From an uncultured Gammaproteobacteria bacterium (GTDB taxonomy: Bacteria > Patescibacteriota > Patescibacteriia > UBA9934 > GWF2-40-263), in the NCBI GenBank assembly GCA_964399675.1, contig CAYNRK010000006.1, forward strand, positions 1,886-65,885: a DNA stretch of 64,000 nucleotides. Direction: 5' to 3'. Made by a program: the position numbers and the translations under genes. This document shows positions 6,446 through 50,708 of the stretch, piece after piece (position 1 is the stretch's first letter; each line of letters opens with the position of its first letter). The notes beneath the pieces are model-generated. The model saw nothing but the letters and a program-made list of their open reading frames with translations, was not told the origin of the DNA and did not search any database.

Positions 6446-6447
6446 GA

Positions 6448-30952: not shown

Positions 30953-30981
30953 TTGACGCAATCAAGAAAATAAATTACTCT
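30953..30981 (+). promoter_or_regulatory. Candidate promoter TTGACG-17-TACTCT for cassette 4
   Basis: The -35 is near-consensus and the spacer is 17 nt. A second TTGACG lies at 30921. Confidence 0.3.
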
Positions 30982-31019
30982 TCTTTTCTGACGGACTGGC
31001 TGTCACCACGGAGGAACTC

Positions 31020-31634: not shown

Positions 31635-31663
31635 AAACACTCGACACTCAACATCTCTCTCCT

Positions 31664-31691: not shown

Positions 31692-31815
31692 GAAAATTGA
31701 ACCAGGTGCATAAGCATCAAAAATAACTGTCACCAAATAGATCCATAATTTACATTACAAAAGAAGCTGGCGAGCAAAGAATTCTGTGCACAAACAAAAA
31801 CAACCCTTTCGGAAC

Positions 31816-31837
31816 AATCCTAACGATCGTTAGGATT
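31816..31837. promoter_or_regulatory. Perfect 22-bp palindrome AATCCTAACGATCGTTAGGATT abutting the stop codon of the wHTH/Cas2-like gene
   Basis: It is exactly self-complementary. A near-identical copy lies at the gene's start (32365-32386). Confidence 0.6.
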
Positions 31838-31838
31838 G

Positions 31839-32357
31839 TTAGAGAATTTTTCCCTCCACCACCTTCGCCCATTCTCCAATTCCAATCTCATCAAGGAGCT
31901 GCCTCATCTCATCGGTAACAGCCTTTCTTGTTCCCCAAATACTTTTTTGAATTTGTACAAAACCAGCTTTCTTTAAATATTTACGAAAAAGATCACGAGT
32001 TTTTCGAACATCTTCTGGAATGTCAAAGATGATCAGACAGTATTCATCATCAAAGAGTTCGTTTTGTTCTAAAAGAATTCTGTCTTTCAATGACTGTACT
32101 AGACCCTTTTTTGTTAATTGAAACTCAATACGGTCGCCTTTTTCTAGTATTTCAATTAGACCCCTTTCAATGAGTTGATACTCAAGCTCGAGATGATTTA
32201 TCTTCGCTTTTCTTTTCCTATAAAAATCAAATTCCCGAGCCATTGCTCTGACACCAGTACCTGAACACGGGTAGGAATAAGGATGCGATTTTTCCAATCT
32301 TTGTATTCTGTTAGTCAACTTTTGAAGTTGATATCGAGTATTTGGAATTTTAGACAT
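31839..32357 (-). CDS. Putative transcriptional regulator: N-terminal winged-helix-like region plus a C-terminal Cas2/VapD-like domain (paralog of 49589-50134)
   Basis: The ATG start is at 32357 (MSKIPNT). The C-terminal pattern YCLIIFDIPEDVRKTRDLFRKYLKKAGFVQIQKSIWGT resembles the Cas2 beta1-alpha1 core. Its composition is AT-rich like the host. Cognate palindromes lie at both ends. Confidence 0.45.
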   Translation of the reverse strand: MSKIPNTRYQLQKLTNRIQRLEKSHPYSYPCSGTGVRAMAREFDFYRKRKAKINHLELEYQLIERGLIEILEKGDRIEFQLTKKGLVQSLKDRILLEQNELFDDEYCLIIFDIPEDVRKTRDLFRKYLKKAGFVQIQKSIWGTRKAVTDEMRQLLDEIGIGEWAKVVEGKIL

Positions 32358-32364
32358 AAGCAAA

Positions 32365-32386
32365 AATCCTAACGATCGTTATGATT
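32365..32386. promoter_or_regulatory. Second copy of the 22-bp palindrome (AATCCTAACGATCGTTATGATT), 8 bp upstream of the regulator start codon
   Basis: It differs by one base from 31816-31837. It overlaps the expected RBS/promoter and is a likely autoregulatory operator. Confidence 0.55.
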
Positions 32387-32530
32387 TCTCTGAAACAGTG
32401 TGGGAAGAGCTAAACGAAAAACTCCCCACCACTACTAATGGAAGGGAGTATTTATTATAATTACATATTAGCAATTTTTTTTGAATCTGTCAATGTGTAT
32501 GACAACTAATTTTCATAAAAAAACAAAATT

Positions 32531-32567
32531 CAGATAACAAGAAAACCACCAGGACAATACCTTGGTG
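32531..32567 (-). terminator. Intrinsic terminator of cassette 5 (minus strand)
   Basis: The stem CCACCAAGG/CCTGGTGG is followed by TTTTCTTGTT on the minus strand. Confidence 0.45.
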
Positions 32568-32581
32568 GCCGTACGTCTTGC

Positions 32582-33307
32582 TCAGACGAGCAAGGACATG
32601 ACTGCGCGCATGTGACCGCTGAGAAAGCCAGCTGCCCTTGCTTCGCGCAGGACACTGCGAGTGATCCAGGCGAAGTTCTCGGGCTGACCGGTCTTTTTGA
32701 CTTCTTGGTTGACCAGACCCTCATCAGCCACACGAATGTGTCCGTACTTGTTGACCTTTTCGAAGTGTCGACCCCCGTCTTCGACTGCGTCCTCCCAGGC
32801 AATATGCGACGCCCATCCCACCTTCTGTGGAGATAGAACCAGGTCAGCAAACGGAACAGGCTTGATGGGCCGACCTCCACGATCCAGCTCCCCTTGCAGT
32901 GCCTTGCGATGATGATCCAGATTGGATTGTGAGAACTGCACTGGTGGGGCAACAAGGACTCGTGTGTTGCGACCTTGGGGCACTTCGATTCCAATGTTGC
33001 CTGGCTCAGCAAGCATGCGCACAAGGATCCTGTTGGGCTCGTGCACGATCAAGGCAACGAACCCCTTTCCAACCGTGAAAAGCATGGGCTGCTTCCAGCT
33101 CGCAACCTCTCGACCGGCCGCACCGGCGATCCTTACACCACGCACGCTGTAGAAGCGTCCATCAGGACGCATGAGCCCGGCGTCGGAAACCTTCCAGTCT
33201 GGCCTGAGCCACGAAATGGAGCATTCTTCCGACGCCATTGCCAGCGCATCCGCACGCTTATGAGCGAAAGTGAAAAAAGACGGCATATTGGTAAAGGTCT
33301 TAACCAT
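32582..33307 (-). CDS. Hypothetical protein (241 aa), GC-rich cassette 5
   Basis: ATG at 33307 lies 8 nt after AAGGAGA. GC is about 62% by eye. It is inserted within the dTDP-sugar gene cluster. Confidence 0.55.
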   Translation of the reverse strand: MVKTFTNMPSFFTFAHKRADALAMASEECSISWLRPDWKVSDAGLMRPDGRFYSVRGVRIAGAAGREVASWKQPMLFTVGKGFVALIVHEPNRILVRMLAEPGNIGIEVPQGRNTRVLVAPPVQFSQSNLDHHRKALQGELDRGGRPIKPVPFADLVLSPQKVGWASHIAWEDAVEDGGRHFEKVNKYGHIRVADEGLVNQEVKKTGQPENFAWITRSVLREARAAGFLSGHMRAVMSLLV

Positions 33308-33333
33308 GATCACTGTCTCCTTGCTGAAAAGAA

Positions 33334-33362
33334 AAATTAGCAGTCTTTATCAAAATTGTCAA
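33334..33362 (-). promoter_or_regulatory. Promoter TTGACA-17-TAATTT (minus strand) for cassette 5
   Basis: The reverse complement of 33357-33362 is TTGACA. The spacer is 17 nt and the -10 TAATTT is identical to the -10 at 23491. Confidence 0.5.
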
Positions 33363-33363
33363 T

Positions 33364-33391
33364 CAAAAAAGAGCCGTTCGGCTCTTTTTTA
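33364..33391. terminator. Bidirectional intrinsic terminator after rmlD
   Basis: AAAAAAGAGCCGTTCGGCTCTTTTTT. Confidence 0.6.
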
Positions 33392-33401
33392 TTTATTTAT
33401 T

Positions 33402-34259
33402 TTATTCTCCCCTTTTTGCTTTTGCGTACTTTTCTAATGTGTCTCTTAATGCCTCTTGTACAGATCTCATTGCTATTCCAAATTCTCCCAATCGCGTGCT
33501 TTTCAAAAAGTTGTTTGACCGTCCTTTCTTTGCCAACCCTTGTTTTACTAAATCATCATTTGAAATCCATTCACACGAATGATTCTGATCCACTAATTCC
33601 TTATACAATCCAAGCAGCTCTCTGTGTCTCATGGTTCCTGGATTAGTAACATGGAAAATTCCTTCGGCTCGTTTGCTAAGAAGCTGATAAAAAACATCAA
33701 CCATATCATCAACAATTGAAACTGAATTTTCAACATCAATTACTTTTTCAAAACCCGCGAGCTTATCAATCAAATTTCCTGAAGATGGCTTCCAATCTAT
33801 TGGCATACGAATTCGTCCGATCCCAACATTAGGAAGTGTTGAAAGAACCAAGTCAGCTGCAAACTTTGCTCGTGAATAAACAGGACGCGGGTTTCCAAAA
33901 TCATCCTCGCGCCATGCATTATCTTCGTGCGGCGAGTGTCCATAAAAAATACATCCGGAACCAATGTGCAGCAAATACTTCCCTGTCTCTGCACACGCTT
34001 GCGCAAGCATAATAGGAAGCACAGTGTTTCCTTCAATCGTTTCCAGTTGATGATCTTCACACCAGTCCACGTTTGGTTTTCCTTTTACACCAGCCGCATT
34101 AAAAACAACATCCGGCTGCGTTCTGTTAATTTCATCAATTGCGTCCTGCACGCTCTTTACGTTCACGGGCGAAATAAAAGCTTCATCCCCCCAAGCCTCC
34201 TTACAACGATTACCAATGTAACCGTTTCCAAAAATCAAAATTTTCATAGTTTTTGTCAT
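33402..34259 (-). CDS. rmlD: dTDP-4-dehydrorhamnose reductase-like NAD(P)-dependent reductase
   Basis: The start is ATG at 34259 (MTKTMKILIFG) or 34247. It has an N-terminal Rossmann fold and the YSRAK (YxxxK) motif. It is adjacent to rmlB. The ORF-track N-terminal extension reads through repeat A2. Confidence 0.6.
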   Translation of the reverse strand: MTKTMKILIFGNGYIGNRCKEAWGDEAFISPVNVKSVQDAIDEINRTQPDVVFNAAGVKGKPNVDWCEDHQLETIEGNTVLPIMLAQACAETGKYLLHIGSGCIFYGHSPHEDNAWREDDFGNPRPVYSRAKFAADLVLSTLPNVGIGRIRMPIDWKPSSGNLIDKLAGFEKVIDVENSVSIVDDMVDVFYQLLSKRAEGIFHVTNPGTMRHRELLGLYKELVDQNHSCEWISNDDLVKQGLAKKGRSNNFLKSTRLGEFGIAMRSVQEALRDTLEKYAKAKRGE

Positions 34260-34348
34260 TTCGAGCGAGCTAGGTGAGCCGAGAAATCTCGCATTCCAGA
34301 TCTCTCCGCTCCCCACGATCCTTCGGATCGGGGTCGGTCGAGATGACA
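34254..34348. repeat. Family-A palindromic repeat, copy 2 (fills the rmlB-stop/rmlD-start gap exactly)
   Basis: The ends are TGTCATTTCGAGCGA ... TCGGTCGAGATGACA. Confidence 0.6.
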
Positions 34349-34353
34349 TGCTG

Positions 34354-35358
34354 TTATCTTAAATTATATTGCTGTTTGTAATAATCTTTATAAGCACCTG
34401 AACGGCATCTATCAATCCACTCTTGATTGTCTTTTAACCATTGCACTGTTTGACCCAATCCTTCATCAAAATTTACTTTTGGTTCCCAGCCAAGTTCTGT
34501 TCTTAACTTCTGACTGTTTAATGCATATCGTCGATCATGCCCGGCCCGATCTTTTACATATTCAATATGAGATTCATCTCGTCCTGTAAGTCCAATCATC
34601 TTTCTTACAATATCCAGGTTTGGCACGCGATACCCTGTTCCAATGTTATAAGCTTCGCCAAGGTTGCCTTTTTGCGCAATCAAGTCAATTGCCCTGCAAT
34701 GATCTTCTGTAAAAATCCATTCACGGATTTGCATTCCATCTCCATAAACAGGAACGATTTTACCATTAAATAAATTGGATGTAAACAATGGGATCAGCTT
34801 TTCAGGAAATTGATATGGGCCATAAAAATTAACAGAGTGAGTGATAATAACCGGAGTTCCATAAGTTATTGCATAAGCGTGGCACATATGATCAGCCGCA
34901 GCTTTTGAAGCCGAGTATGGGCTTCTTGGCTCAAATGGCGAACCCTCTTCTGACTCCCCTTCCATAACAGCGCCATAAACTTCGTCTGTTGAAATGTGAA
35001 CCATACGAGGAATGTTGTGTTTGCGAACACCCTCAAGCAATGTGTAAACGCCATAGATATTTGTATCAACAAATGCACGAGGTTCTAAAATTGATCGATC
35101 AACATGAGTCTCAGCAGCATAGTTGATAATCAGATCAACGCCTTTTGATAAAACCTGGTCCACATCATTTTCGTTTGCAATATCACCTTTTACAAATTGA
35201 TAACGCTTGTCGTTTTCAATCTCTTTGAGATTTTCAAGATTTCCAGCGTAAGTTAGTTTGTCAAAGTTAACAACTTCAACATCGTCATATTTTTTTAACA
35301 AATAGTGGATCATGTTTGTTCCCATGAATCCAGCTCCTCCGGTGATCAATATTTTCAT
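34354..35358 (-). CDS. rmlB: dTDP-glucose 4,6-dehydratase
   Basis: It reads MKILITGGAGFMGTN..., has the YSASKAAADH catalytic YxxxK and is 334 aa. Confidence 0.8.
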   Translation of the reverse strand: MKILITGGAGFMGTNMIHYLLKKYDDVEVVNFDKLTYAGNLENLKEIENDKRYQFVKGDIANENDVDQVLSKGVDLIINYAAETHVDRSILEPRAFVDTNIYGVYTLLEGVRKHNIPRMVHISTDEVYGAVMEGESEEGSPFEPRSPYSASKAAADHMCHAYAITYGTPVIITHSVNFYGPYQFPEKLIPLFTSNLFNGKIVPVYGDGMQIREWIFTEDHCRAIDLIAQKGNLGEAYNIGTGYRVPNLDIVRKMIGLTGRDESHIEYVKDRAGHDRRYALNSQKLRTELGWEPKVNFDEGLGQTVQWLKDNQEWIDRCRSGAYKDYYKQQYNLR

Positions 35359-35894
35359 ATGTTCAAATGTTTTTTAACCAAATACCAGGATGAGATCACT
35401 GTTCCGTCCCAAATATCTCCACTCTGAATTGCTTCATCGATTTGTTCTGCTGTCATTTCAATAATATCTATCTCTTCATTGTCTTCTAATTTTTGTTTTG
35501 CTGGCTCAAGATCTGTTGCCAAATAAACTATTCCCCGTTCTTTTGAAATAGATGGAGCTGATGCTTTCCACCCGATTCTAACGATTTTATTTGGCTTATA
35601 CCCAGCCTCTTCAATGCACTCTCTTACAAATGCCTCATCTGGAGTTTCGTCTTTTTCAATCCCACCAGCTGGAATAGCAACAGAAATCTTGTCAAACAAA
35701 TATCTATATTCTTTAAGCATTATAAAGTTGCCGTTTTCTTTTTGAAGAAAACCTTCAACATACTCTGTGCCGTATGCATTTGCATGATAGTAATATGTTC
35801 GTTTCTGACCATCAACCTCATAATCATCAACTAAAAATCGTATGTGATCGTTTTCAATCACTGGTTCTGTTTTAATTGTTTTCCATTTTTTCAT
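35355..35894 (-). CDS. NUDIX hydrolase (ADP-sugar/NDP-sugar pyrophosphatase-like)
   Basis: The Nudix box is GGIEKDETPDEAFVRECIEEAGY. The start is ATG at 35894. The earlier ATG at 35909 lies inside repeat A3. Confidence 0.6.
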   Translation of the reverse strand: MKKWKTIKTEPVIENDHIRFLVDDYEVDGQKRTYYYHANAYGTEYVEGFLQKENGNFIMLKEYRYLFDKISVAIPAGGIEKDETPDEAFVRECIEEAGYKPNKIVRIGWKASAPSISKERGIVYLATDLEPAKQKLEDNEEIDIIEMTAEQIDEAIQSGDIWDGTVISSWYLVKKHLNI

Positions 35895-35903
35895 ATTCAC
35901 TTC

Positions 35904-35994
35904 TGTCATCCCGAGCGACCCCGGCGCAGCCGGGGGAGCCGAAGGATCTCGAATTTGAGATTTCTCCGCTCGCTAGTGCTCGGTCGAAATGACA
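35904..35994. repeat. Family-A palindromic repeat, copy 3 (overlaps the last codons of the HIT gene)
   Basis: The ends are TGTCATCCCGAGCGA ... GCTCGGTCGAAATGACA, in reverse-complement orientation relative to copy 1. Confidence 0.6.
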
Positions 35995-36389
35995 GATCTA
36001 ATCTGATTAGCGATTTTTTCAAGCTCCTCTGGATCCCCTTGTTTTTGCGGCCACATTTTCAATCCATCATCTTTGAATCTAGGAACAATGTGAACGTGTG
36101 TGTGAAAAACCGATTGCCCAGCTGCCTCGCCAATGTTTGAAGTAACATTTAGTCCGTCAGCATTTGTGATTTTTTGAATTATTGGACCCAACTTTCTAAC
36201 AGTTGCAAAAACATGGTTCATGTCCTCTTCTGAAGATTCAAACATATTTGCTTTTTCGTTTTTTGGAACAACAAGCACATGACCATTGTGCACTGGAAAC
36301 GCATCCAAAAACGCAACCGTGTACTCGTCCTCATAAATGATCTGTGCGGGAATTTCTTTATTTATAATTTTTGTGAAAATAGATGACAT
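35973..36389 (-). CDS. HIT-family hydrolase (histidine triad protein)
   Basis: The HTHVHIVPR histidine triad is present. Confidence 0.7.
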   Translation of the reverse strand: MSSIFTKIINKEIPAQIIYEDEYTVAFLDAFPVHNGHVLVVPKNEKANMFESSEEDMNHVFATVRKLGPIIQKITNADGLNVTSNIGEAAGQSVFHTHVHIVPRFKDDGLKMWPQKQGDPEELEKIANQIRSVISTEH

Positions 36390-36398
36390 ATTTATATT

Positions 36399-36516
36399 TG
36401 GATCGCTTCTGGATCGCTACCCGGTAGTCTGGATCGCTACCCGGTAGTCTGGATCGCTACCCGGTAGCGGTTTAAGCCTTTAAAAATGGGCCCAGACCGC
36501 TATCGGGTAGCGATTC
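36399..36516. repeat. Three perfect tandem copies of the 20-bp unit TGGATCGCTACCCGGTAGTC (the last copy ends in CG) plus one inverted partner (CTATCGGGTAGCGATT); each unit contains the near-palindrome GCTACCCGGTAGC
   Basis: I read the direct repeats at 36410-36469, the partial unit at 36400 and the inverted copy at 36500-36516. The array lies in the HIT gene's upstream region. Confidence 0.6.
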
Positions 36517-36518
36517 TT

Positions 36519-36884
36519 TTATTTTGATCTTAAAAGTCCAAGAAAAAATAATGGAATGATGAGCCCCAAAAGACTCACGAAAAATCGATTTGTACCAAGC
36601 CCCTCACCAGTAAGCCAGATTATCATAGATAAAAATATTCCAAAAGCAACAGCAACCAGCAATTGAATCTTTGGCCGATCTTGATAAGTTCTGACCGAAA
36701 TTGACCACCAGTAGCCAAACACCAAACTAAAAAACAGAAAAATATGCACTGAAAAATATCTTGCAACAAAGCCGGATCGTATTGTGTCAAAAAGCCAAAA
36801 AGTAACATAAGAAACCAGGCTTGTTAAAAATCCTGTTTTTGCAATCTGCGCCTGCCACTTTCCTTTTTTTAAAAACATATTCAA
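36519..36884 (-). CDS. Small polytopic membrane protein (121 aa)
   Basis: The ORF is hydrophobic and overlaps the upstream gene by 4 nt. Confidence 0.4.
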   Translation of the reverse strand: MNMFLKKGKWQAQIAKTGFLTSLVSYVTFWLFDTIRSGFVARYFSVHIFLFFSLVFGYWWSISVRTYQDRPKIQLLVAVAFGIFLSMIIWLTGEGLGTNRFFVSLLGLIIPLFFLGLLRSK

Positions 36885-38299
36885 TCTTTAAGAAATCTCA
36901 TTATATCTAAAAATCTAAATGGGCTCCGTTTCCAAATAACGTTTATCTCTTTTATTTGCAAGCTTGCGCCAAGTTCTGCAATTCCAGGAGTTGAAAAAGT
37001 AATCTTCCAACTTTTTTTATCCATTAAGAGCTCGTCTTTTTTAAAACTTGCTTTTGCAACATTCCAATCTCCACGTTGTTCTGGTTTTTTGTACTGAGCA
37101 AAAATATAATCAACTTCAAGTGCATCCAAATCTGTATTGTAGAGCAAGCGAACAGGATCAGGATTAAAATATTGATCTGAGGAAAACGATATCATGCCAT
37201 CAATAAAAATTTCCGTGTTTGATTTTGGAACTGTTATTGGGACCACTCCAAAATGCGGAATGCTCGCGCGATACAAAACATACGGTTCATTCATTTCCAC
37301 AAACTCACCAGCAAGCTTAATGACCTGCACTCCTTCAGCGTTTCTTGTTTGAAAAGAAGGATGCTTTCCATTTGTCCAAAAACTCACAGACCTTGCAGGC
37401 TCACGATACCCAACTTCATCTCCCAAATAAACTCGATTCAAAAATGCAATATGTTGCTGTGTGGTTTTTATGTTTCTGACAAAAATATCTCGATTTATAT
37501 TTAGCACAACTTTATAAACTCCTTCTGACAATCCTTCTCTTTCAAGTGTTATCCGCCTGAGTTCTGACGGCTTTGCATTTGCACTTATATTACCGTCATC
37601 TTTTTCTTTTGCATCTGTTACAGGCTGGCCGTCTTCATTAAACACAACAATCGATACTGGATCTTGTCCATCTTCCCGATTCATATCCATGTATTCAAAA
37701 ACAAAATTCAGCTTTTCGTTTTTAATGTAAGTTTTAAATTCGTGATGACCGCGAAGTGTTGCAGCAATGGTTTGGGTTTTAAACGTAGGTTGATACTGTA
37801 AATCTCGATAGGGCTGTTCCAACTCTGCTCGATAGGTTGCGATTGTTTTTCTGGATGATGAATCTGACAAAAATTCATCAATCGATTCAAATTGCTTTTC
37901 TCTTTGCAAAAGAACCTGTCCATCTGATTCGATTCGATCCCAATTTGATTCATCAATAATCTTGTTTTCAAGCGAAGTAAAAGTGTATGCTTCGGGTTTT
38001 GTTGATGCAAGTCCGCCAAGTTCAATAATTGGCACGCTGTTGTTTTTATAGACGATCTCAAGTTCTATCTCATCAAAGTCGCGGTGCGGGTGCAAAAAGA
38101 AAAAAACCGGATCATCAATAATTGTATTACCATTTTCAACTCGACTATCCGGAAGCAACTGATCAACAAAAGCGGATCTGTCTGTTACATCATGTTTTGT
38201 CACAAACTCACCGCTTATTACCAACTCCTTATTAAACAACCAACCAAGAACCGCAAGCGGAATGATTATGATTATAAATTGTACGAGTTTAACCTTCAT
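36881..38299 (-). CDS. Hypothetical membrane-anchored extracytoplasmic protein (472 aa)
   Basis: It has an N-terminal TM and is in an operon with GT-C and CDP-alcohol phosphatidyltransferase genes. Confidence 0.45.
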   Translation of the reverse strand: MKVKLVQFIIIIIPLAVLGWLFNKELVISGEFVTKHDVTDRSAFVDQLLPDSRVENGNTIIDDPVFFFLHPHRDFDEIELEIVYKNNSVPIIELGGLASTKPEAYTFTSLENKIIDESNWDRIESDGQVLLQREKQFESIDEFLSDSSSRKTIATYRAELEQPYRDLQYQPTFKTQTIAATLRGHHEFKTYIKNEKLNFVFEYMDMNREDGQDPVSIVVFNEDGQPVTDAKEKDDGNISANAKPSELRRITLEREGLSEGVYKVVLNINRDIFVRNIKTTQQHIAFLNRVYLGDEVGYREPARSVSFWTNGKHPSFQTRNAEGVQVIKLAGEFVEMNEPYVLYRASIPHFGVVPITVPKSNTEIFIDGMISFSSDQYFNPDPVRLLYNTDLDALEVDYIFAQYKKPEQRGDWNVAKASFKKDELLMDKKSWKITFSTPGIAELGASLQIKEINVIWKRSPFRFLDIMRFLKD

Positions 38300-40438: not shown

Positions 40439-40471
40439 ACTGTGCTACAATAATTAACGAAATATTCTTTT

Positions 40472-42583: not shown

Positions 42584-42587
42584 GTAG

Positions 42588-42636
42588 CAAGACTATTTTC
42601 CGACGATCGTCGGAAAATAGTCTTGTTTTTGTTTTG
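42588..42636 (+). terminator. Intrinsic terminator with a perfect 17-bp stem (CAAGACTATTTTCCGACGA/TCGTCGGAAAATAGTCTTG)
   Basis: It is followed by TTTTTGTTTTG. Confidence 0.65.
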
Positions 42637-42671
42637 CAAAAGCTCGGCCACGTCGCTCAAGAGCGACGTGG

Positions 42672-42700
42672 TTGACAATTTGAGGTTTTCAAGACATAAT
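42672..42700 (+). promoter_or_regulatory. Promoter TTGACA-17-CATAAT for cassette 6, preceded by the hairpin CCACGTCGCTC-aaga-GCGACGTGG
   Basis: The -35 is a perfect consensus, the spacer is 17 nt, and the hairpin abuts the -35. Confidence 0.45.
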
Positions 42701-42745
42701 CAATCGTCACAAAAACGTGGCAAAAGTGAGAAAGGAGGGCTTGTT

Positions 42746-43345
42746 GTGAGCCAGTTCTTTTCAGTGGCCGCGAACGTTTTGATCGTCGTGGTCATGGTGA
42801 TCTACTTCAAACAGGTTGTGAAAGGGGTTTCAGTCCCGAACCCATCGGCCTGGCTTATCTGGATCATCATTGGGCTCATGAATATGGTGAGCTACTTCCT
42901 GGTCGTGCGCGGTGATCTGTGGCAATCGTTGATCACCATTGTTACCTTCGCAGGTTTCATATTCATCTTTGTTTATGCCACAGTGAAAGGAAAATTCGCC
43001 GGCTTTAGCAAAGCGGACATGTTCTATTTCATCCCGGCTCTTGTGGTCGGAGTGATATGGCAGACAACCGGCAATGCAGATCTTGCAAACATCAGTTTGC
43101 AAATCGTGTACCTCCTCTCTTACCTCCCGATCGTACACGGACTACTCAGTCATAGACTCCGCGAAAAGTCACTGCCCTGGAATCTGGCGTCGATATCCTA
43201 CTGCCTGATGATTCTGGCCATTGTGACCGCTGACTCCTGGCGCTGGATTGCGCTCGTCCATCCAATTGCCAATGGAATCGTCGGAAACGGCAGCGTTATC
43301 CTGGCCATCCATCTGCAAGCACGAAAAACTCGGAAGGCAAAGTAA
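42746..43345 (+). CDS. Hypothetical 6-TM membrane protein (199 aa), GC-elevated cassette 6
   Basis: The GTG start lies 7 nt after AAGGAGG. GC is about 52% by eye. Confidence 0.45.
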   Translation: MSQFFSVAANVLIVVVMVIYFKQVVKGVSVPNPSAWLIWIIIGLMNMVSYFLVVRGDLWQSLITIVTFAGFIFIFVYATVKGKFAGFSKADMFYFIPALVVGVIWQTTGNADLANISLQIVYLLSYLPIVHGLLSHRLREKSLPWNLASISYCLMILAIVTADSWRWIALVHPIANGIVGNGSVILAIHLQARKTRKAK

Positions 43346-43396
43346 GCCGCCCGTCAGCCTCGTTGGAGAATCAAATCTCCCACGGGGTGTTTCTTT

Positions 43397-44599
43397 TTAA
43401 AGAGGAAACAACTTTTCCAACTCGTCCACGTACTTTTTAACTGAATGCTTTTCAGCTTCCTTTTGAATCTTTTCTGTCCAATCCCAATACTTTTCTTTAT
43501 TATCAATCAAATCTTGAATCTTGCGCACAAGGTTTTTTTTATTTCCCGGTTCAAACAACCAACCGTTCTCCCCGTCTTTTACAAGCTCAGGAATACCTCC
43601 GATGCTTGCGGCAAGCACAGGCACACCAACACAGAAACTTTCATAAATAATCGTTGGTGAATTTTCATAACAGATTGATGGCAAAACCATTACGTCAGAG
43701 AAGGCAAGAAGTTTATTTAGATTGCCCATTGAAACAAAACCATGTCGATGAATACGAGAATCACGTCTACACCATTCATTTACATATTCTTCCAGTGATC
43801 CTGTTCCTGCAATATATAACTCAACTTCATCGCCAAAATCATTCATTGCTTCTAAAAGGAGAGTGATCCCCTTGTGCATTTCAAGCTGTCCAACAAACAC
43901 CAACCGCACCGGACCTGGAATTCGCTCTTTTCTCATTGCTTGTATTTTGAGCGAAACTGGATTTGGAATAACTTTAACATCAACTTTTTTGAACATGCCC
44001 CTTTCTTTATAAAACTGTGCCAAAAACCTTGAGGGTGAAATAAAAACATTTGGCAAGCCAAAGACTTTCTCAATCGTGCGCTCATACCAAGTCCGAAACA
44101 ACGATTCATTTAGCCAAGTTTTTTCATTTCCATACATAAGCAATCCGCTTGGCACTGAAAGTTGAACATCATGAAGAGTGTGAATGTGAAAAATTTTCTT
44201 TTTCTGAATGGTCTTGGATATTTTCAAACCAATCCCCTTTAAATTGTGAGTGATAATAATATCTGGCTTTTCCTTTTCAATTACTAATTTCATTGCTTTG
44301 GCAGGCAACGGACTAAAAAGATCAATCAAATGCCACAGTGCTCGAACTAAAAATGGCTTATTGCCCTCTGTTAAATGATAAAGATTCAGAGGATAAAACC
44401 TATAAACATCTTCTATTTGTCTTTCAGTAATCTGTGGAAAAAGACTTGAAATACCACTGTACTTTTTTGTACTAAGCACAAACACTTTGTGACCACGGCT
44501 ATACAACTCATCAGCAATTCTTTGTGCAACAAGCTCGGCCCCGCCCCTGACCATTGGTGGATATAGATTTGAAACAATACCAATTTTCATATTTTTCAT
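43397..44599 (-). CDS. Glycosyltransferase family 4 (GT-B, group 1)
   Basis: The start is ATG at 44599 (MKNMKIGIV). The C-terminal E-x7-E block is ENSPTIIYESFCVGVPVLAA. The ORF-track extension covers repeat B2. Confidence 0.65.
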   Translation of the reverse strand: MKNMKIGIVSNLYPPMVRGGAELVAQRIADELYSRGHKVFVLSTKKYSGISSLFPQITERQIEDVYRFYPLNLYHLTEGNKPFLVRALWHLIDLFSPLPAKAMKLVIEKEKPDIIITHNLKGIGLKISKTIQKKKIFHIHTLHDVQLSVPSGLLMYGNEKTWLNESLFRTWYERTIEKVFGLPNVFISPSRFLAQFYKERGMFKKVDVKVIPNPVSLKIQAMRKERIPGPVRLVFVGQLEMHKGITLLLEAMNDFGDEVELYIAGTGSLEEYVNEWCRRDSRIHRHGFVSMGNLNKLLAFSDVMVLPSICYENSPTIIYESFCVGVPVLAASIGGIPELVKDGENGWLFEPGNKKNLVRKIQDLIDNKEKYWDWTEKIQKEAEKHSVKKYVDELEKLFPL

Positions 44600-44775
44600 A
44601 ATCCTCCGACGAACCATCAGGTTATCATCAACAGGTACGTTGGATAATTTCGCCAGCACGAGCGATAGCGAGTCTGCCGAAATTATACAACGTGACTGTC
44701 CTTCAAAGTTCTCTACGGAGATTGCTTCGCCCCTTTTCACGAAAGGGGGCTCGCAACGACGCAGGGGGCAATGAC
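44600..44775. repeat. Family-B leader-like repeat, copy 2 (immediately upstream of the GT4 start codon)
   Basis: It reads AATCCTCCGACGAAC...ACGTTGGATAATTTCG...CGAAATTATACAACGT...GCCCCTTTTCACGAAAGGGGGC. Confidence 0.6.
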
Positions 44776-44781
44776 GCAAAG

Positions 44782-45948
44782 CTAATAAGATCGATTGCTC
44801 TGTTGAGACAAGACTGAACAATAAGTTTGTTCAAGCTTGGTAATCAAAGGATCCCAGTGAAATTCTGCTTCTGCTCTGGCGCGTGCTGATGCGCCGAGTC
44901 GCTTTCGCAAATCTGTTTGTTCAAGCAAAAGCAAAATCGCTTTTTTAAGCTCCTCTTCATCACCTGCCGGAACAAGCAACCCCGTATTCCCATCTTGCAC
45001 CACTGTTCTTACTCCTGGCAAGTCTGAGGCAATTGTTGGAATCCCACTTGCTGCAGCTTCGAGTGCAACCAAACCAAATGCTTCAGCACGTTGCGTTGAT
45101 GGAAAAACATGAATGTCTGAACCACTGTAATACTTAGGCAAATCCTTATCTGAAACATTACCAACAAAAACAACGTGATCAAAAAGACCCAACTTCTCCG
45201 CTGTTGCTGCATAGCTTTGCTGAAGGCTTCCGGAACCAACAATCAACAATTTCCAATCATAAGATTTTAAACTGGAAAGTGTTTGCAAAAGAATTGGTAG
45301 GCCTTTGAAGTGATGTGCAGGATCAAGACCGCCAACAAATAAAAGAACTGGAGTTGTTTTTTTAATATTATGACTTTCTTTTATAAAAACATTGTCGCTT
45401 GGACGAAATCGTTCCAAATCAATTCCAAACGGATGAATCTCTAATCGATCCATAGCGCCATGTACATCTGCAAGCGCGGACGATTCTGCATAATCTTTTG
45501 TGCTGGCAAGTATACGATCCACACGCCCAATTAACCATGGAAACAAAAGTCGTCTATGCATTCCAAAAACCGCACCCTTAACACCGGAAGCAACTGCATC
45601 CATATGATACGAGAGAACTAATCCTTGATCCTTTCGCATGGCCTTTCGCACAACAACCGGTTCAGCACCTCCAAAAAACGGATAGTGAAGATGAACCAAA
45701 TCAAAACCTGACAAGCGTTTGTAAAGCGATGGCATTACCCCAGCATTTCCAACATGAATCAAACTTGGAATACGATGGATATGTTTTGGATCCTCAACCT
45801 CCTGTTTTTTCGTTGTAAAAACATGGACATTATATCCTCTGTCTCTTAGACGCTCTGTGTACTCAAACGCAACATTCCCCATCCCACCCCGATATGGTGG
45901 ATAAGTACAAACAACTTGAGCGATTTTGATTTGTTTTTGTTCTACCAC
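44782..45948 (-). CDS. Glycosyltransferase family 4
   Basis: It reads QRAEAFGLVALEAAASGIPTIASDLPG and has GT-B architecture. Confidence 0.65.
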   Translation of the reverse strand: MVEQKQIKIAQVVCTYPPYRGGMGNVAFEYTERLRDRGYNVHVFTTKKQEVEDPKHIHRIPSLIHVGNAGVMPSLYKRLSGFDLVHLHYPFFGGAEPVVVRKAMRKDQGLVLSYHMDAVASGVKGAVFGMHRRLLFPWLIGRVDRILASTKDYAESSALADVHGAMDRLEIHPFGIDLERFRPSDNVFIKESHNIKKTTPVLLFVGGLDPAHHFKGLPILLQTLSSLKSYDWKLLIVGSGSLQQSYAATAEKLGLFDHVVFVGNVSDKDLPKYYSGSDIHVFPSTQRAEAFGLVALEAAASGIPTIASDLPGVRTVVQDGNTGLLVPAGDEEELKKAILLLLEQTDLRKRLGASARARAEAEFHWDPLITKLEQTYCSVLSQQSNRSY

Positions 45949-46994
45949 ACAATAAATTGTTTTAATATCGACCAGATGATTTGAAGCACGGGGTTTCCAA
46001 TTTCCTCAACAACTTTACTTGATGTTTCTTGATGATCAATCTTTCCTGTAAAAATTGACACAATCTTTTCATCACTAACTTTTCTAATAATTTTTGAGCG
46101 CTTACGAGACTTAAACACGTAAACCCAAGTGCTTGGTTTTAGAAATTGAAAATAAACAAATAACTTTTCTTTGATCCAACCGCCTTTTATTGCAAAAAAC
46201 AAAAGCGCAATTTCCATTACAAACAAGAATGGCAAAAGAACCAAAATCGTTCCGCACTTAAGATGCGAAAAATGAACTAAAATTCTATTTCGTTCCATCC
46301 AATAAAACTTTGTAATGGATCGCTTGAATTCATAATCATGAAAAGCAATCGATTTCATTGATAGAACGTTTTTGAATCCAGCCAAACGAATTCTCCAACC
46401 AAGTTCCAAATCCTCGTGATAGAGAAACAAAAACGGATCAAGAAGACCAACTTGTTTTAAAACTGTTGCTCTGTACAAAACCGCTGCTCCACTTGCGTAT
46501 GCAATTTCTTCCCCGTCTTTGCGATCAACATCAGACACTTTTGCACCGTTGTCTCTGACAAAACCAAAACCCAAAAAATGAACCATGCCACCTGTTGAGT
46601 TTAAAACATTTTCTTGCCTCCAAAGTTTCATTACTGACTGAACTGATCCAATCTCTTTATCTGACTCAGCAAGTGCAACTGCTTCTTTAATTGCTTGGGG
46701 TTCAAGTTTTAAATCATTATTGTGAAGATAAATATAATCAGCACCCTCAAGAAGTGCGTGTTCGGTTCCCAAATTATTTCCACCAGCAAATCCCAGATTC
46801 TTTCCACTTGGAAAAAATGTAATACCATCCATTTTTCTTAAAACCTCTTGCGACCCATCTTTTGAATCATTATCAACCACAATAATTTCCAACCTGTCTT
46901 TTGGATAGTCAAGATTGTCTAAAGCAGAAAAAACCTCTTTAAGGTATTTTTTTCCATTATAAGATAGGTAAATTATCGCAACTTTTGGAAGCAT
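45942..46994 (-). CDS. Glycosyltransferase family 2 with a C-terminal membrane region
   Basis: It has an N-terminal GT-A domain with VDNDSKDGS (DxD) and TM helices in the C-terminal third. Confidence 0.6.
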   Translation of the reverse strand: MLPKVAIIYLSYNGKKYLKEVFSALDNLDYPKDRLEIIVVDNDSKDGSQEVLRKMDGITFFPSGKNLGFAGGNNLGTEHALLEGADYIYLHNNDLKLEPQAIKEAVALAESDKEIGSVQSVMKLWRQENVLNSTGGMVHFLGFGFVRDNGAKVSDVDRKDGEEIAYASGAAVLYRATVLKQVGLLDPFLFLYHEDLELGWRIRLAGFKNVLSMKSIAFHDYEFKRSITKFYWMERNRILVHFSHLKCGTILVLLPFLFVMEIALLFFAIKGGWIKEKLFVYFQFLKPSTWVYVFKSRKRSKIIRKVSDEKIVSIFTGKIDHQETSSKVVEEIGNPVLQIIWSILKQFIVW

Positions 46995-46995
46995 A

Positions 46996-47160
46996 GATTT
47001 TTAATTGAAATAGATTCGAAATGCGGAAATAGATTGAAATATGTAGAAATATGTGGAAATAAGGTTGTGTTCAATCTATTTCTACTTATTTCAATTAGTT
47101 TCCATTTATTTCTATCTATTTCCGTACTCTGAATTCGTTTCCACCTATTTCTACTTATAA
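46996..47160. repeat. Array of helically phased GAAATA(G/T) direct repeats followed by mirrored TATTTC repeats (a long imperfect inverted repeat) upstream of the GT2 gene
   Basis: There are about 6 forward and about 7 reverse copies at about 10-11-bp spacing. The left half is the approximate reverse complement of the right half. Confidence 0.5.
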
Positions 47161-47492
47161 ATCTCCTCATCAACCTCCTCAATCGCCAATTTTCTCACTA
47201 ATTTTGTAATCTCCTGTTCAATAGCCTCCATTTTAACAAACATCCGAAACACCAAAAAGAACAAACCAATAATTGAAAGGTAAATAATCAGATCAGCTCC
47301 TCGACCAACACCAACCAATCGAGCCAGCACATCAGAAGTCTGTGGCAAAAGCGTTACAACAGAAGCTGCAATCCAAAAAACAACCCAAAACAAAAGCCAG
47401 GCTATTGTAAGCCCTCCCTTTTTGAATTGCGTAATTGTCCTTGTTATGGCAAAGAGCGCAAACGCAACAATTAATCCTTGAATGATTGACAT
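47151..47492 (-). CDS. Small membrane protein, DUF2304-like partner of the GT2 polyprenyl-phosphate glycosyltransferase
   Basis: It is 113 aa with 3 TM helices and lies immediately downstream of the DPM1-like GT2 with 1-nt spacing, as is typical for this pairing. Confidence 0.45.
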   Translation of the reverse strand: MSIIQGLIVAFALFAITRTITQFKKGGLTIAWLLFWVVFWIAASVVTLLPQTSDVLARLVGVGRGADLIIYLSIIGLFFLVFRMFVKMEAIEQEITKLVRKLAIEEVDEEIYK

Positions 47493-47493
47493 A

Positions 47494-48159
47494 TCACATC
47501 ATGATTCTACGCAAGACTAATTTTACAAGAGTTTTAATTCCAACAAAAAATCCCTGACCTTTTGAAAGTGAGTACTCAGTGTAGATTGCTTTTATTGGAA
47601 CTTCTTTTAGAACAAGTTTGTTGCGCTTAGTTTCAGCAATAATTTCTGAGGAAACTTCCATGCGATTTGTTTGCAGCTCAATCTTTGAAAGCGCAAACTC
47701 TGTAAACGCACGATATCCGGATTGACTATCAGACACCCAGGCACCAAACAAAACAAAAGTTGTTAAGTTCCCAAGAATCTGAGCAACCTGTCTGTACCAT
47801 GGCATTCCAACTCTGGTTTTCATTCTTGTTCCAATCACAACATCCGCCCCTTTTTCTATTGCATGTACAAACTTGTTTATCTCTGATGGATCGTGTTGGC
47901 CATCAGCATCCAATGTGACAACAACCTCAGCATTTCGTTTTTTTGCCATTTCAAAACCAGTACCAATCGCTGCACCCAACCCCCTATTTATCACATGACT
48001 AACAACAACAGCACCTTGCACACGAGCAATCTGCGCAGTCCGATCAGTTGACCCATCATCCACCACCACAACCTCATCAACAAAATCCCGCGTTCCTTTC
48101 AGAACCTCGGCAATCGTTGTTTCTTCATTGTAAGCAGGAATAACTGCAATAATTTTCAT
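47494..48159 (-). CDS. GT2 polyprenyl-phosphate glycosyltransferase (DPM1/GtrB-like)
   Basis: It reads MKIIAVIPAYNEE...VVVVDDGSTDRT and is 221 aa. Confidence 0.65.
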   Translation of the reverse strand: MKIIAVIPAYNEETTIAEVLKGTRDFVDEVVVVDDGSTDRTAQIARVQGAVVVSHVINRGLGAAIGTGFEMAKKRNAEVVVTLDADGQHDPSEINKFVHAIEKGADVVIGTRMKTRVGMPWYRQVAQILGNLTTFVLFGAWVSDSQSGYRAFTEFALSKIELQTNRMEVSSEIIAETKRNKLVLKEVPIKAIYTEYSLSKGQGFFVGIKTLVKLVLRRIMM

Positions 48160-48170
48160 AGATTGATCTT

Positions 48171-48400
48171 AATCCTCCGACGAACTCTCAGTATCTCCAC
48201 AACAGGTACGTTGTATATAATTTCGCCAGCACGGAACAAAGTGAGTACTGCCGAAATTATATACAACGTGACTGTCCCCCATAATTCTTTACGAAGATTG
48301 CTTCGCTTCGCTCGCAATGACACAAGGTGCAGGACACGAGGGAATTCTTTACGGAGATTGCTTCGCCCCGTTTCACGAAAGGGGGCTCGCAACGACGCAT
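48171..48400. repeat. Family-B leader-like repeat, copy 3 (with an internal duplication), immediately upstream of the GT2 start
   Basis: The perfect hairpin arms are ACGTTGTATATAATTTCG / CGAAATTATATACAACGT. The 2-nt TA insertion is present in both arms. Confidence 0.6.
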
Positions 48401-48458
48401 GGAAAAGTAGCAAAGACGCAGAGGGAGAGCGAGGACGCAGTGTGATTAGGCAGTATGA

Positions 48459-49475
48459 TTAAATCGACGTCAGCAGAATCTTATTTGCTTTCATATATTC
48501 AATAGTCTTCTTCAACCCATCTTCAAGCCTCACAAGCGGGAACCACCCCAAATCTTTGGCCTTGTTAATCCTTGGAAGCGACAGCTCTGATAAAAACTCA
48601 AAATCCTCACCCTTAACAATCTTTGACGAGCTTGTGGTCATTTGAATTATCATCTGAGCAACTTCATTAAGAGACAGGTCAATATCACTTCCTAAGTTTA
48701 CTGGGCCTGGATATTCCAGGGCGTTCATAAGCCGTGCAATTCCATCAACAATATCACTTACATAAGCGAGTGATGTACGGAAATCTTTTCCACCATTTAG
48801 AACCAGATCCTTTCCATCCAGGGCGTTTAAAATAAAATCCGGAATCATATGACCATCAAAAAGAGGCATGCGCGGTCCATAGGTTCTAAAGATGCGAGCT
48901 ATACGAATATCAATTGCGTGCACTTGTCTGTATGTCTCAAACATTGTTTCAGAAAATCTCTTGCCTTCGTCATAACACGCTCGAACTGACAAGTGATCCA
49001 CGATCCCTTTTGCATCTTCTTGAACATGTGCTTTTGTATCTGTTCGTGCTCCATAAACAACAGAACTTGATGCAAGCAAAATCTTTGCGCGATACTTTTT
49101 TGCAAGCTCTAAAACATGATAATTCCCAAGAGAGTTTGAAAGTAATGTTTGAACTTTAAACTCATTAAACTTTTTAATTGATGTTGGGCATGCAAAATGA
49201 TAGATCTCTTGAATACCTTGAAACGGAAGTTTGAATGCAGCAAGTTCTGAATGGCTTTCAAGATCAAACACCTCATTAACATCTAATCTAATGAATCGAA
49301 AGTCTGGGTGTTGTAAAAGACCACTGATATTACTGTGATCGCTGGTTGAAAAATTATCAACGCAAATCACACGATGACCCTCTTTGAGCAAATGCTCACA
49401 CAAATGGGATCCAATAAAACCAGCCCCACCGGTAACAAGTATGTTATTTTTTTCAAATGTAAGTGCTTGTGGCAT
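48459..49475 (-). CDS. NAD-dependent epimerase/dehydratase (UDP-glucuronate decarboxylase/UXS-like)
   Basis: It has VTGGAGFIGSHLCEHL and the YDEGKR (YxxxK) motif, and is 338 aa. Confidence 0.6.
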   Translation of the reverse strand: MPQALTFEKNNILVTGGAGFIGSHLCEHLLKEGHRVICVDNFSTSDHSNISGLLQHPDFRFIRLDVNEVFDLESHSELAAFKLPFQGIQEIYHFACPTSIKKFNEFKVQTLLSNSLGNYHVLELAKKYRAKILLASSSVVYGARTDTKAHVQEDAKGIVDHLSVRACYDEGKRFSETMFETYRQVHAIDIRIARIFRTYGPRMPLFDGHMIPDFILNALDGKDLVLNGGKDFRTSLAYVSDIVDGIARLMNALEYPGPVNLGSDIDLSLNEVAQMIIQMTTSSSKIVKGEDFEFLSELSLPRINKAKDLGWFPLVRLEDGLKKTIEYMKANKILLTSI

Positions 49476-49564
49476 ATGTTCAATTATAGCAGGGGCTGGG
49501 CACTGGGCGCTAGGGGCTGGGCACCCGGACGAGCGTCCGTTACCTCACACACTCCTTACGGCGT

Positions 49565-49596
49565 ACATTATTTCCGCATATGAGAATTTTATGTCC
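49565..49596. promoter_or_regulatory. Degenerate copy of the 30-bp palindrome ACATTATTTYC-n8-GAAAATAATGT at the 3' end of the second wHTH/Cas2-like gene
   Basis: It reads ACATTATTTCCGCATATGAGAATTTTATGTCC. Confidence 0.4.
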
Positions 49597-50134
49597 ATTC
49601 ATTTCCAACAATGACTTTCACCCACTTGTCTATTCCAAGCAATTGAGAAATCGCAACTAGCTCATCTGCAACATCTTTATTCGTTGACAAAACACTTAAC
49701 TGAAATTTTTTAAATCCCACTGAGTAAAGAAAGTGACGCCAGCTGTCTCGAGCCTTGGATGCACCGTTTGGGAAATCAAACATTACAAAACAAACCTGAT
49801 CATTTGGAAGCTCGATATCTTTTGTTCGAACTAGTTGTTTAAGATGTTGAACCAATGCATGCGAGGAAATCTCCACCAACATCTTGTTGCCAACTTTCTT
49901 TGACTCAATCCATTTTTTCTCTTGAAGATCTTTTATTACCCGTCTTTTTTCACGGTCGGCCTGAATCTGTTCCCACACTTCATCAGGCAACCTTGTCGAA
50001 TGCATGTATCGAGGACCAGCATAAGGTGGAACAAAAGTAACTACTTTTCCCATTAAATCTAAACCTCCAAGTAGTAACTCGATAACTTCTTCCTTTACTG
50101 TTTTCGATTCATTATCAATCCTAGGTCTTGCCAT
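49589..50134 (-). CDS. Putative regulator, wHTH + Cas2/VapD-like C-terminal domain (paralog of 31839-32357)
   Basis: Its C-terminal VCFVMFDFPNGASKARDSWRHFLYSVGFKKFQLSVL parallels LIIFDIPEDVRKTRDLFRKYLKKAGFVQIQKSIW in the paralog. Confidence 0.45.
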   Translation of the reverse strand: MARPRIDNESKTVKEEVIELLLGGLDLMGKVVTFVPPYAGPRYMHSTRLPDEVWEQIQADREKRRVIKDLQEKKWIESKKVGNKMLVEISSHALVQHLKQLVRTKDIELPNDQVCFVMFDFPNGASKARDSWRHFLYSVGFKKFQLSVLSTNKDVADELVAISQLLGIDKWVKVIVGNEWT

Positions 50135-50138
50135 ATGT

Positions 50139-50169
50139 ACATTATTTTCTCATATGGGAAAATAATGTA
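50139..50169. promoter_or_regulatory. 30-bp palindrome ACATTATTTTC-tcatatgg-GAAAATAATGT between the regulator start and the NUDIX gene
   Basis: The 11-bp arms are perfect. It lies 5 bp upstream of the regulator ATG. Confidence 0.55.
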
Positions 50170-50185
50170 CAAGAGTTTTTGATCA

Positions 50186-50647
50186 TTATTTCAGATATCC
50201 CAACTTTTTAAAAAGTTTAATTGATGGCGGAGTCAATTTTAATTTTTTAAGCTCATCGATTTGAGTCCAGCTATGAGTTACCAGATCGTCTTCTAGTTTA
50301 ATCTCAATCTCGTCTGCATTTTTGTCATTAATCACGATCTTGAATACATTAAAAACCATCTCACAGACCACATCCTCACCAGTACCCTTAAGGGTCTTTT
50401 CACATTCACCTCGACCAGAATCATCGACTAATTCAATCTCATACAACGAGATATCGATTCCGGTTTCTTCTTTTACTTCACGAATCAAAGCAGACTCTTT
50501 GTCTTCACCTTGATCAATACCTCCACCGGGGATATGCCAACTATCAGAATAGACACCTCCTTTATTAGGATCTTTCATTCCCTGAAACAGCTTTCCGTCT
50601 TTTGAAAAAATAAGTGCTGCTACAATATCTCTTTTAATTCGTTTCAT
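50186..50647 (-). CDS. NUDIX hydrolase
   Basis: The Nudix box is GGGIDQGEDKESALIREVKEETGI. Confidence 0.65.
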   Translation of the reverse strand: MKRIKRDIVAALIFSKDGKLFQGMKDPNKGGVYSDSWHIPGGGIDQGEDKESALIREVKEETGIDISLYEIELVDDSGRGECEKTLKGTGEDVVCEMVFNVFKIVINDKNADEIEIKLEDDLVTHSWTQIDELKKLKLTPPSIKLFKKLGYLK

Positions 50648-50677
50648 AATTTTCTGAATAGCTTATTGATCTGTGTG

Positions 50678-50708
50678 CATTGTTTTCTCATATGGGAAAA
50701 TAATGTCC
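50678..50708. promoter_or_regulatory. Second near-perfect copy of the 30-bp palindrome (CATTGTTTTCTCATATGGGAAAATAATGTCC) upstream of the NUDIX gene
   Basis: It shares the same core as 50139-50169. Confidence 0.5.

Follow-up and report, generated by a model that had tools for sequence, protein, structure and literature searches.

Paralogous winged-helix/Cas2-like proteins of a patescibacterial contig are bracketed by locus-private palindromes and are candidate self-regulating repressors

The 64-kb stretch of the patescibacterial contig CAYNRK010000006.1 analyzed here (the window) encodes two related proteins in which an N-terminal winged helix is followed by a C-terminal Cas2-like domain of the PaaX_M type, and the gene for each is bracketed by long palindromes of its own. 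The contig is AT-rich, with a GC content of ~39%, and homology results mark it as patescibacterial. Paralog 1 has 172 amino acids (coding sequence at 31839 to 32357, minus strand), and paralog 2, with the same two-domain architecture, has 181 amino acids (49589 to 50134, minus strand). An initial annotation of this DNA had called related proteins at these two places; both coding sequences are present, and their products are 34% identical over 108 amino acids (E = 4e-21). It had also described the window as free of CRISPR and cas genes, and we found no CRISPR-like array or repeats and no cas1 in the 64 kb. A search of the whole window against Rfam at the gathering threshold, and of the paralog 1 locus at E ≤ 1, returned nothing meaningful, PHROGs gave no match and no phage link, and Cas2 models were the sole PADLOC matches.

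At the 3' end of paralog 1 lies a perfect 28-bp palindrome with a CGATCG center (31813 to 31840), which overlaps the stop codon by 2 nucleotides (nt); its core, AATCCTAACGATCGTTAGGATT, is matched exactly at 31816 to 31837, 1 nt from the stop codon. The upstream copy, at 32362 to 32389, has the core AATCCTAACGATCGTTATGATT (32365 to 32386), which differs by one mismatch and ends 7 nt before the ATG. The placing of this palindrome at both ends of paralog 1 by the initial annotation therefore stands, apart from the gap before the start codon, which had been given as 8 nt. Palindrome 1 occurs twice in the window and had 0 matches in 100 shuffles. A metagenome-wide scan, in a collection that does not include the source organism, returned seven single matches, four of them in contigs whose base composition is unrelated (46 to 65% GC), and no family gene was found near any of the seven. 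Three independent Logan contigs of the same organism (L098, L099, and L100; L numbers designate loci used for comparison) end 28 to 29 bp past the paralog 1 stop codon, right at the palindrome. Perfect palindromes appear to break these assemblies, and sites of this kind could be missed in short-read metagenome-assembled genomes (MAGs) for that reason.

A different palindrome, with a CATATG center, marks the paralog 2 locus. Its middle copy, exact at 50139 to 50168, extends to 36 bp (50136 to 50171) between the stop codon of an adjacent NUDIX hydrolase gene and the ATG of paralog 2, from which the extended palindrome ends 1 nt away. A second copy, with two mismatches, is found at 50677 to 50706, 29 nt before the NUDIX ATG. 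The third, at 49566 to 49595, consists of a half-site plus the CATATG center and overlaps the paralog 2 stop codon; 5 of its 22 specified bases are changed, with one arm retained and the other lying over the stop codon. Of the three copies claimed previously, two are thus good, and the third is real but degenerate. Palindrome 2 had no match in shuffled sequence. All palindrome copies of both paralogs are identical across nine independent assemblies of the source organism and so are not assembly artifacts; the strain assemblies are uniform at both loci, except for one 52-bp deletion in the upstream intergenic region of one assembly.

The NUDIX gene (50186 to 50647, minus strand; PF00293, 55.5 bits) is bracketed by palindrome 2 copies, and its position next to paralog 2 is kept in all strains. 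The presence of palindrome 2 before NUDIX, before paralog 2, and over the paralog 2 stop codon suggests a coregulated NUDIX-paralog 2 operon. The NUDIX gene is probably coregulated with paralog 2, and the copy at 50677 to 50706 is the probable operator of the operon. NUDIX genes had been reported to adjoin both paralogs, which is correct for paralog 2 and not for paralog 1, where the nearest one (35355 to 35909) is three genes, or ~3 kb, away. Paralog 2 itself is a divergent orphan, with no close homologs found outside its own species.

The C-terminal core of both proteins is Cas2-like, as first proposed. PF20803 (PaaX_M, the Cas2-like central domain of PaaX) scores 53.9 bits for paralog 1 and 26.3 bits for paralog 2, with a cutoff of 24; paralog 1 also scores 24.2 bits for PF09827 (Cas2) and lies just above the Cas2 model cutoffs, and paralog 2 lies under them. 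AlphaFold2 models of the two proteins (predicted local distance difference test values of 88 for paralog 1 and 81.7 for paralog 2) both contain N-terminal helices and a beta-hairpin, which form the winged helix, and then a beta-alpha-beta-beta-alpha-beta domain. For both models, the top-ranked Foldseek match is Escherichia coli PaaX (PDB 8a39), followed by many Cas2 chains with probabilities of 0.93 to 1.0, so that domain scores and structural matches agree on a ferredoxin fold. The better fits of paralog 1 to Cas2 chains have root mean square deviations of 2.3 to 3.3 Å, with others up to ~4.8 Å, over ~72 residues. A check that had been framed as a choice between a Cas2-like and a PaaX-like protein found both, since the middle domain of PaaX is itself Cas2-like and 8a39 is the top match; only the either/or fell away.

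Profiles built from the family point the same way. The closest solved sequence relative of the C-terminal half is type II-A Cas2 (E = 2e-4), and the N-terminal half matched winged-helix DNA binders of the AspA, FadR, and MarR types, while VapD (PDB 3ui3) reached only E = 0.1. The family retains the Cas2 signature [FY]D[IF]P..R...R..L...GF..Q.S[VI]W, with invariant F, D, P, R, Q, and S residues that include the Cas2 aspartate after strand 1 (D112). The family profile aligned to PaaX residues 59 to 114, and the full-length Foldseek match to 8a39 takes in the N-terminal domain, for which PF07848 (the N-terminal PaaX winged helix) gave no Pfam match at E ≤ 1. Neither protein matches PF08223 (PaaX_C), the sequences stopping after the Cas2-like domain, and the PaaX equivalog model TIGR02277 gave 23.8 bits against a cutoff of 264.55. 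Because they lack PaaX_C and fall far under the equivalog cutoff, the paralogs are shortened PaaX-like proteins, neither PaaX orthologs nor CRISPR Cas2.

These two proteins belong to a large family. When 1.84 billion representative proteins were searched with a profile, 5,185 clusters (50% identity) were found at E ≤ 1e-10, nearly all from Patescibacteria and with several paralogs per genome; among the best 150 clusters, nearly all lengths are between 150 and 220 amino acids. A single peptide pattern searched against GTDB genomes found >581 loci, overwhelmingly in Patescibacteria MAGs as judged by record titles, from which 80 other loci were kept as a comparative set, with up to 5 family copies per MAG. 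In public databases, some members are annotated as "CRISPR-associated endonuclease Cas2" or as "PaaX domain protein," and the first of these labels is misleading. Cas1 was neither among the most frequent neighbor Pfam families nor among the genes called beside the homologs examined.

Across the 80 loci, the palindromes that adjoin family genes are long and dyad symmetric, with lengths of 30 to 58 bp. We found an upstream palindrome at 31 of 75 family genes compared to 18 of 248 control genes from the same loci (P = 4e-11) and a downstream palindrome at 23 of 75 family genes compared to 17 of 248 controls (P = 5e-7). Long, near-perfect palindromes are 6- to 9-fold enriched at the ends of family genes over these controls. 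Where a locus has both, the upstream and downstream copies are one palindrome in 12 of 15 cases, and the median palindrome identity over 30 bp is 90% within a locus versus 47% between loci. Paralogs of one MAG have different palindromes, and even the syntenic orthologs L001 and L002, which are 69% identical in protein sequence, have palindromes that are alike only in the central ~10 bp. The bracket is present in three separate subfamilies, among them that of paralog 1 (L082, L083, L084, L109, and L110, all with a CGATCG center) and a subfamily of 176-amino-acid proteins (L112 and L114). The proposal that cognate palindromes at both gene ends might mark autoregulators or self-contained modules is strengthened by this family-wide enrichment and by the locus-private copies.

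Two further observations concern palindromes in this comparative set. In the MAG DAIPKT01, a 38-bp palindrome away from family genes (L064, 7470 to 7505) is close to the bracket palindrome of L046, which is on another contig of the same MAG, and this resemblance is a hint of further target sites, i.e., a regulon, for some paralogs. In L083 (3524 to 3555) and L109 (1745 to 1765), an extended reading frame takes in the downstream palindrome, and the annotated protein gains a C-terminal extension; either the stop codon ahead of the palindrome was lost, or the called open reading frame (ORF) reads through.

The sequence and position of the palindromes provide clues to how they might work. Palindromes were detected by their outer arms alone, so that the center did not bias detection. 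Even centers were found in 48 of 50 flanking palindromes, and the central 4 nt are self-complementary in 34 of these 50, compared to 7 of 58 palindromes elsewhere in the loci; the most common centers are CCATGG, CGATCG, CTATAG, CTCGAG, and CGTACG. Self-complementarity at this place, which an RNA or single-strand loop does not need, fits recognition of duplex DNA by a symmetric dimer. Mismatches between arms are divided equally between G:T (23) and A:C (21), so that the sense transcript shows no tolerance of wobble pairs. On the gene side, 23 of 35 upstream palindromes have a -10-like box (5 or more of 6 matches) within 30 nt, compared to 9 of 35 on the far side. Most of these boxes are 1 to 14 nt past the palindrome, and several read TGnTATAAT. 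A palindrome just before the -10 box covers the -35/spacer region, a classical repressor position. In the window, the sites adjoin the ATG of paralogs 1 and 2. The downstream copy has a median position 18 nt past the stop codon, often overlaps that codon, and often lies between convergent genes; some downstream copies have A and T tracts.

Given these findings, we consider it probable, if by no means assured, that each paralog is a homodimeric, self-regulating winged-helix repressor with a private palindromic operator, a second copy of which stands at the 3' end of its gene. The fold, the family, the anatomy and statistics of the palindromes, and the position of the promoter are observed, and from them we infer that the protein dimerizes, binds its palindrome, and represses, and what the downstream copy does. 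The winged helix-turn-helix and Cas2-like domains would together make a minimal PaaX-type DNA-binding protein, in which, by analogy to PaaX and Cas2 dimers, the Cas2-like domain may serve as the homodimer interface. The dimer would recognize the palindrome, itself two-fold symmetric, on either side of its own gene. Of the palindrome copies, the one nearer the promoter would be the autoregulatory operator. In most family members, this copy covers the -35/spacer region immediately before the -10 box, and in the subfamily of paralog 1, including paralog 1 itself, it is found in the leader beside the start codon; for paralog 2, one operator copy would stand ahead of the NUDIX-paralog 2 operon and another would abut the ATG. 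A second binding site would be provided by the stop-codon copy, which could close a repression loop of ~0.55 kb or, alternatively, could be a roadblock or could terminate transcription in both directions and so shield the unit from its neighbors. Because paralogs within one genome have different palindromes, such protein-site pairs would be predicted not to cross-react.

Several observations weigh against this model. A strict palindrome is found upstream in only ~40% of loci and downstream in ~30%, and autoregulators do not usually have a site at the stop codon. Palindromes of 40 to 58 bp exceed the needs of a single winged-helix dimer, and proteins that are 80 to 85% identical can have quite different palindrome arms. 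Covariation between protein regions and half-sites, in a Mantel-type comparison, is weak and not significant (for the winged helix, r = 0.12 to 0.13 and P ~0.06 to 0.07). Diverging copies stay perfectly symmetric via mirrored changes (L011, L015, and L065), which goes beyond what protein contacts alone would require. This pattern suggests that the arms are constrained by hairpin or cruciform formation or are corrected from a template. Finally, the Cas2 aspartate is compatible with an enzymatic role, which is possible because this residue is invariant; nuclease activity of the Cas2-like domain is likewise a possibility, judging from the sequence.

Some of these features would also be expected if the palindromes acted in RNA and formed hairpins at both mRNA ends (a translational operator masking the start region, and a terminator or stability element) that the Cas2-like, RNase-like domain binds or cleaves. 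Mirrored, compensatory changes in diverged copies fit this explanation, as do the upstream palindromes of paralog 2 and of the paralog 1 subfamily, which lie 1 to 32 nt before the ATG and past the predicted promoter, the downstream copies that abut the stop codon (median gap, 18 nt), and flanking A/T tracts like those of bidirectional terminators in L001, L070, and L072. The paralog 1 locus illustrates the point about transcription. Upstream of the gene come, in order, a strong promoter-like site (32465 to 32493, minus strand; TTGACA-17-TAATAT and a TG upstream), a terminator-like hairpin and U run in the leader (32412 to 32449, minus strand; fold z-score of -3.99), palindrome 1, and the ATG, and this order is common to all six members of the subfamily. 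The shared leader (32412 to 32493, minus strand, in the window; 2833 to 2915 in L082, 2861 to 2940 in L083, 568 to 650 in L084, 1046 to 1160 in L109, and 797 to 885 in L110) has a -35 element, CATTGACA, that is unchanged in 6 of 6 members, a TGnTnnAAT -10 element, and a hairpin and U run ~45 to 50 nt past the predicted start site. The hairpin z-scores of five of the six lie between -3.4 and -7.0, and that of L084 is -2.2. The leader has no Rfam match and could be an attenuator or a small RNA. With a predicted promoter upstream, the palindrome is probably transcribed in this subfamily and may therefore act as a roadblock or on RNA. In the main subfamily, by contrast, the palindrome stands ahead of the -10 box and would not be transcribed from that promoter; the self-complementary centers are needless for an RNA loop, and the sense strand shows no wobble bias. 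Thus, action at the RNA level is unlikely for the family, though we would give it some weight.

About as unlikely, in our estimation, is that the palindrome-gene-palindrome units constitute an unrecognized, phylum-wide class of Patescibacteria module in which the Cas2-like domain, beyond forming a dimer interface, acts on the dyad center (CGATCG, CCATGG, or CATATG) of its private palindrome by nicking, hairpin formation, or cruciform recognition. If this were true, the units would be domesticated or active selfish elements or protein-programmed transcription insulators, and they would offer a view of how Cas2-like domains deal with palindromic DNA outside CRISPR. The FDIPE/FDISQ motif (paralog 1 residues 111 to 115) is associated with center type, with an adjusted mutual information of 0.27 to 0.29 compared to a null 95th percentile of 0.24, probably as a phylogenetic effect. 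CGATCG or CTATAG centers tend to go with FDIPE and CCATGG centers with FDISQ, these residues being at the Cas2 "active site."

A selfish or mobile one-gene cassette with palindromic ends, comparable to IS200/IS605, REP-RAYT (repetitive extragenic palindromic sequences and their associated tyrosine transposases), or integron cassettes and with the Cas2-like domain as a palindrome nuclease, would account for the single palindrome at both ends in 12 of 15 loci, the diverse and unrelated neighbor genes, the multiple paralogs per genome, the invariant Cas2 aspartate, and the position of paralog 1 as an independent unit within a dTDP-sugar cluster. The inheritance of the family argues against it. 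Orthologs are syntenic, and the family protein is better conserved than its syntenic neighbors (99% versus 79% identity, 93% versus 82%, 88% versus 79%, and 81% versus 74%), which points to vertical inheritance under purifying selection and not to recent mobility. No identical copies were seen within a genome, each paralog having its own palindrome, and the invariant residues include no HUH, Tyr, or Ser recombinase motif. We found no relatives in 2.9 million viral contigs, in line with the lack of a PHROG match, and no empty-site polymorphism in the strain assemblies examined (8 to 9 places per paralog, among 17 to 18 contigs). We therefore regard a mobile cassette as improbable.

It is more improbable still that the palindromes are just the usual intrinsic terminators, or intergenic hairpins of a generic kind, in these AT-rich genomes and that their position beside family genes is unrelated to the protein. 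Solo palindromes do exist away from family genes (42586 to 42627 and 9680 to 9707 in the window, 4944 to 4983 in L001, and the L064 palindrome described above), and several solo palindromes have T runs, yet generic hairpins would explain neither the 6- to 9-fold enrichment over controls from the same loci nor copies that are nearly identical within a locus and different between loci, and the centers are unlike those of generic hairpins, with the -10 box on the gene side. The idea, from the initial annotation, that the proteins are Cas2/VapD-like nucleases or toxins with a functional link to NUDIX hydrolases, for which the palindromes shared by paralog 2 and its NUDIX neighbor and the conserved Cas2-type motif FDIP...R...Q.S might speak, is very hard to sustain, since a NUDIX gene is the downstream neighbor in only 2 of 77 related loci, NUDIX is outside the 25 most frequent families of 74 upstream neighbors, no conserved small partner or antitoxin-like gene was found among the neighbors, VapD similarity reaches only E = 0.1, and PADLOC gives Cas2 models alone. 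Coupling to NUDIX was thus not borne out by gene neighborhoods, and a toxin or RNA-processing role would also sit poorly with palindrome mismatches that lack a G:U bias and with self-complementary centers.

The neighbors of family genes across loci are diverse and of a housekeeping kind. Around paralog 1, the gene order is HIT, NUDIX, RmlB, RmlD, a single-domain hexose dehydratase, paralog 1, a GC-rich ORF, and an RmlA-like gene; paralog 1 is an independent unit within a dTDP-sugar gene cluster. The dehydratase ORF (32582 to 33313, minus strand) is a single-domain NDP-hexose 2,3-dehydratase-like ORF; we considered whether a dehydratase gene had been split by paralog 1 and rejected this, as the downstream GC-rich ORF has no dehydratase domain. 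Three GC-rich islands of 53 to 65% GC are found in the window, at 5400 to 6500, 30975 to 31640, and 32530 to 33313. The latter two flank paralog 1 and were found in all examined assemblies that span them, and they are therefore not chimeras; the islands were possibly acquired horizontally. ORFs 5229 to 6170 and 31020 to 31634, both on the plus strand in GC-rich islands, have no Pfam or PHROG match.

The window also contains dispersed direct repeats in intergenic DNA, in blocks of ~20 to 40 bp that resemble miniature inverted-repeat transposable elements or REP sequences (6296 to 6363, 44644 to 44763, and 48260 to 48399; 4517 to 4553 and 15641 to 15677), one of them at the edge of the island at 5400 to 6500. 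Of the solo palindromes mentioned above, that at 42586 to 42627 is 42 bp long with a CGATCG center and lies 3 nt past the stop codon of a gene for a 703-amino-acid membrane protein, and that at 9680 to 9707 is 28 bp long with a CGGCCG center and lies in a divergent intergenic region. Both are in the style of the brackets with no family gene adjacent, and paralogs whose genes lie in other parts of the genome may use them as sites.

Patescibacteria have genomes of ~1 Mb with few recognized regulators. If the paralogs and their palindromes are protein-operator pairs, as in the repressor model that we favor, the family may account for much of the gene regulation in this phylum and would be a natural set of repressor/operator pairs that do not cross-react. 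It would also define a minimal PaaX architecture and would show that, outside CRISPR, Cas2-like domains are tied to recognizing palindromic DNA. Neither the fold nor the Pfam domain is new; the family as such and its systematic bracketing by private palindromes are undescribed. In the literature searched, we found no paper that pairs PaaX with Cas2 or with Patescibacteria terms.

Among known systems, REP-RAYT and IS200/IS605 elements are similar in anatomy only, with a unit of ~0.6 to 0.7 kb in which one small gene stands between palindrome copies. In contrast to these elements, the family protein has no HUH/Tyr motif and occupies syntenic, conserved positions, and where those elements are dispersed en masse, the palindromes described here appear to be private to a locus, as judged from the 64-kb window (2 to 3 copies) and the 8.5-kb loci (1 to 4 copies each). 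The family has no significant similarity to VapD (E = 0.1), and no conserved small partner of the type II toxin-antitoxin kind was found. The likeness to Cas2 (PF09827 and TIGR01573) lies in the ferredoxin-like fold, the motif [FY]D[IF]...R...L...GF..Q.S[VI][WF], and the invariant aspartate after strand 1. Cas2, however, is a stand-alone protein of ~90 to 110 amino acids, whereas the window proteins (172 and 181 amino acids) are fused to a winged helix, are multicopy, and are found amid housekeeping genes without cas1 or a CRISPR array. A full-length structural match was obtained with the short PaaX-like protein of the Rv0674 type (PDB 3kfw; 168 aligned columns, probability of 0.57, and 14% identity), which is likewise an uncharacterized, shortened PaaX-like protein but is actinobacterial. 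The phenylacetate catabolism repressor PaaX of E. coli W (PDB 8a39; PF07848, PF20803, and PF08223) has the same order of an N-terminal winged helix and then a Cas2-like domain, and PaaX acts as a repressor on palindromic operators. It is 316 amino acids long, compared to ~175 for the window proteins, which end after the Cas2-like domain without PaaX_C. Unlike PaaX, the window proteins have no paa genes nearby, their neighbors being sugar-nucleotide, glycosyltransferase, NUDIX, and housekeeping genes, and a copy of their palindrome, the putative operator, stands at either end of the gene.

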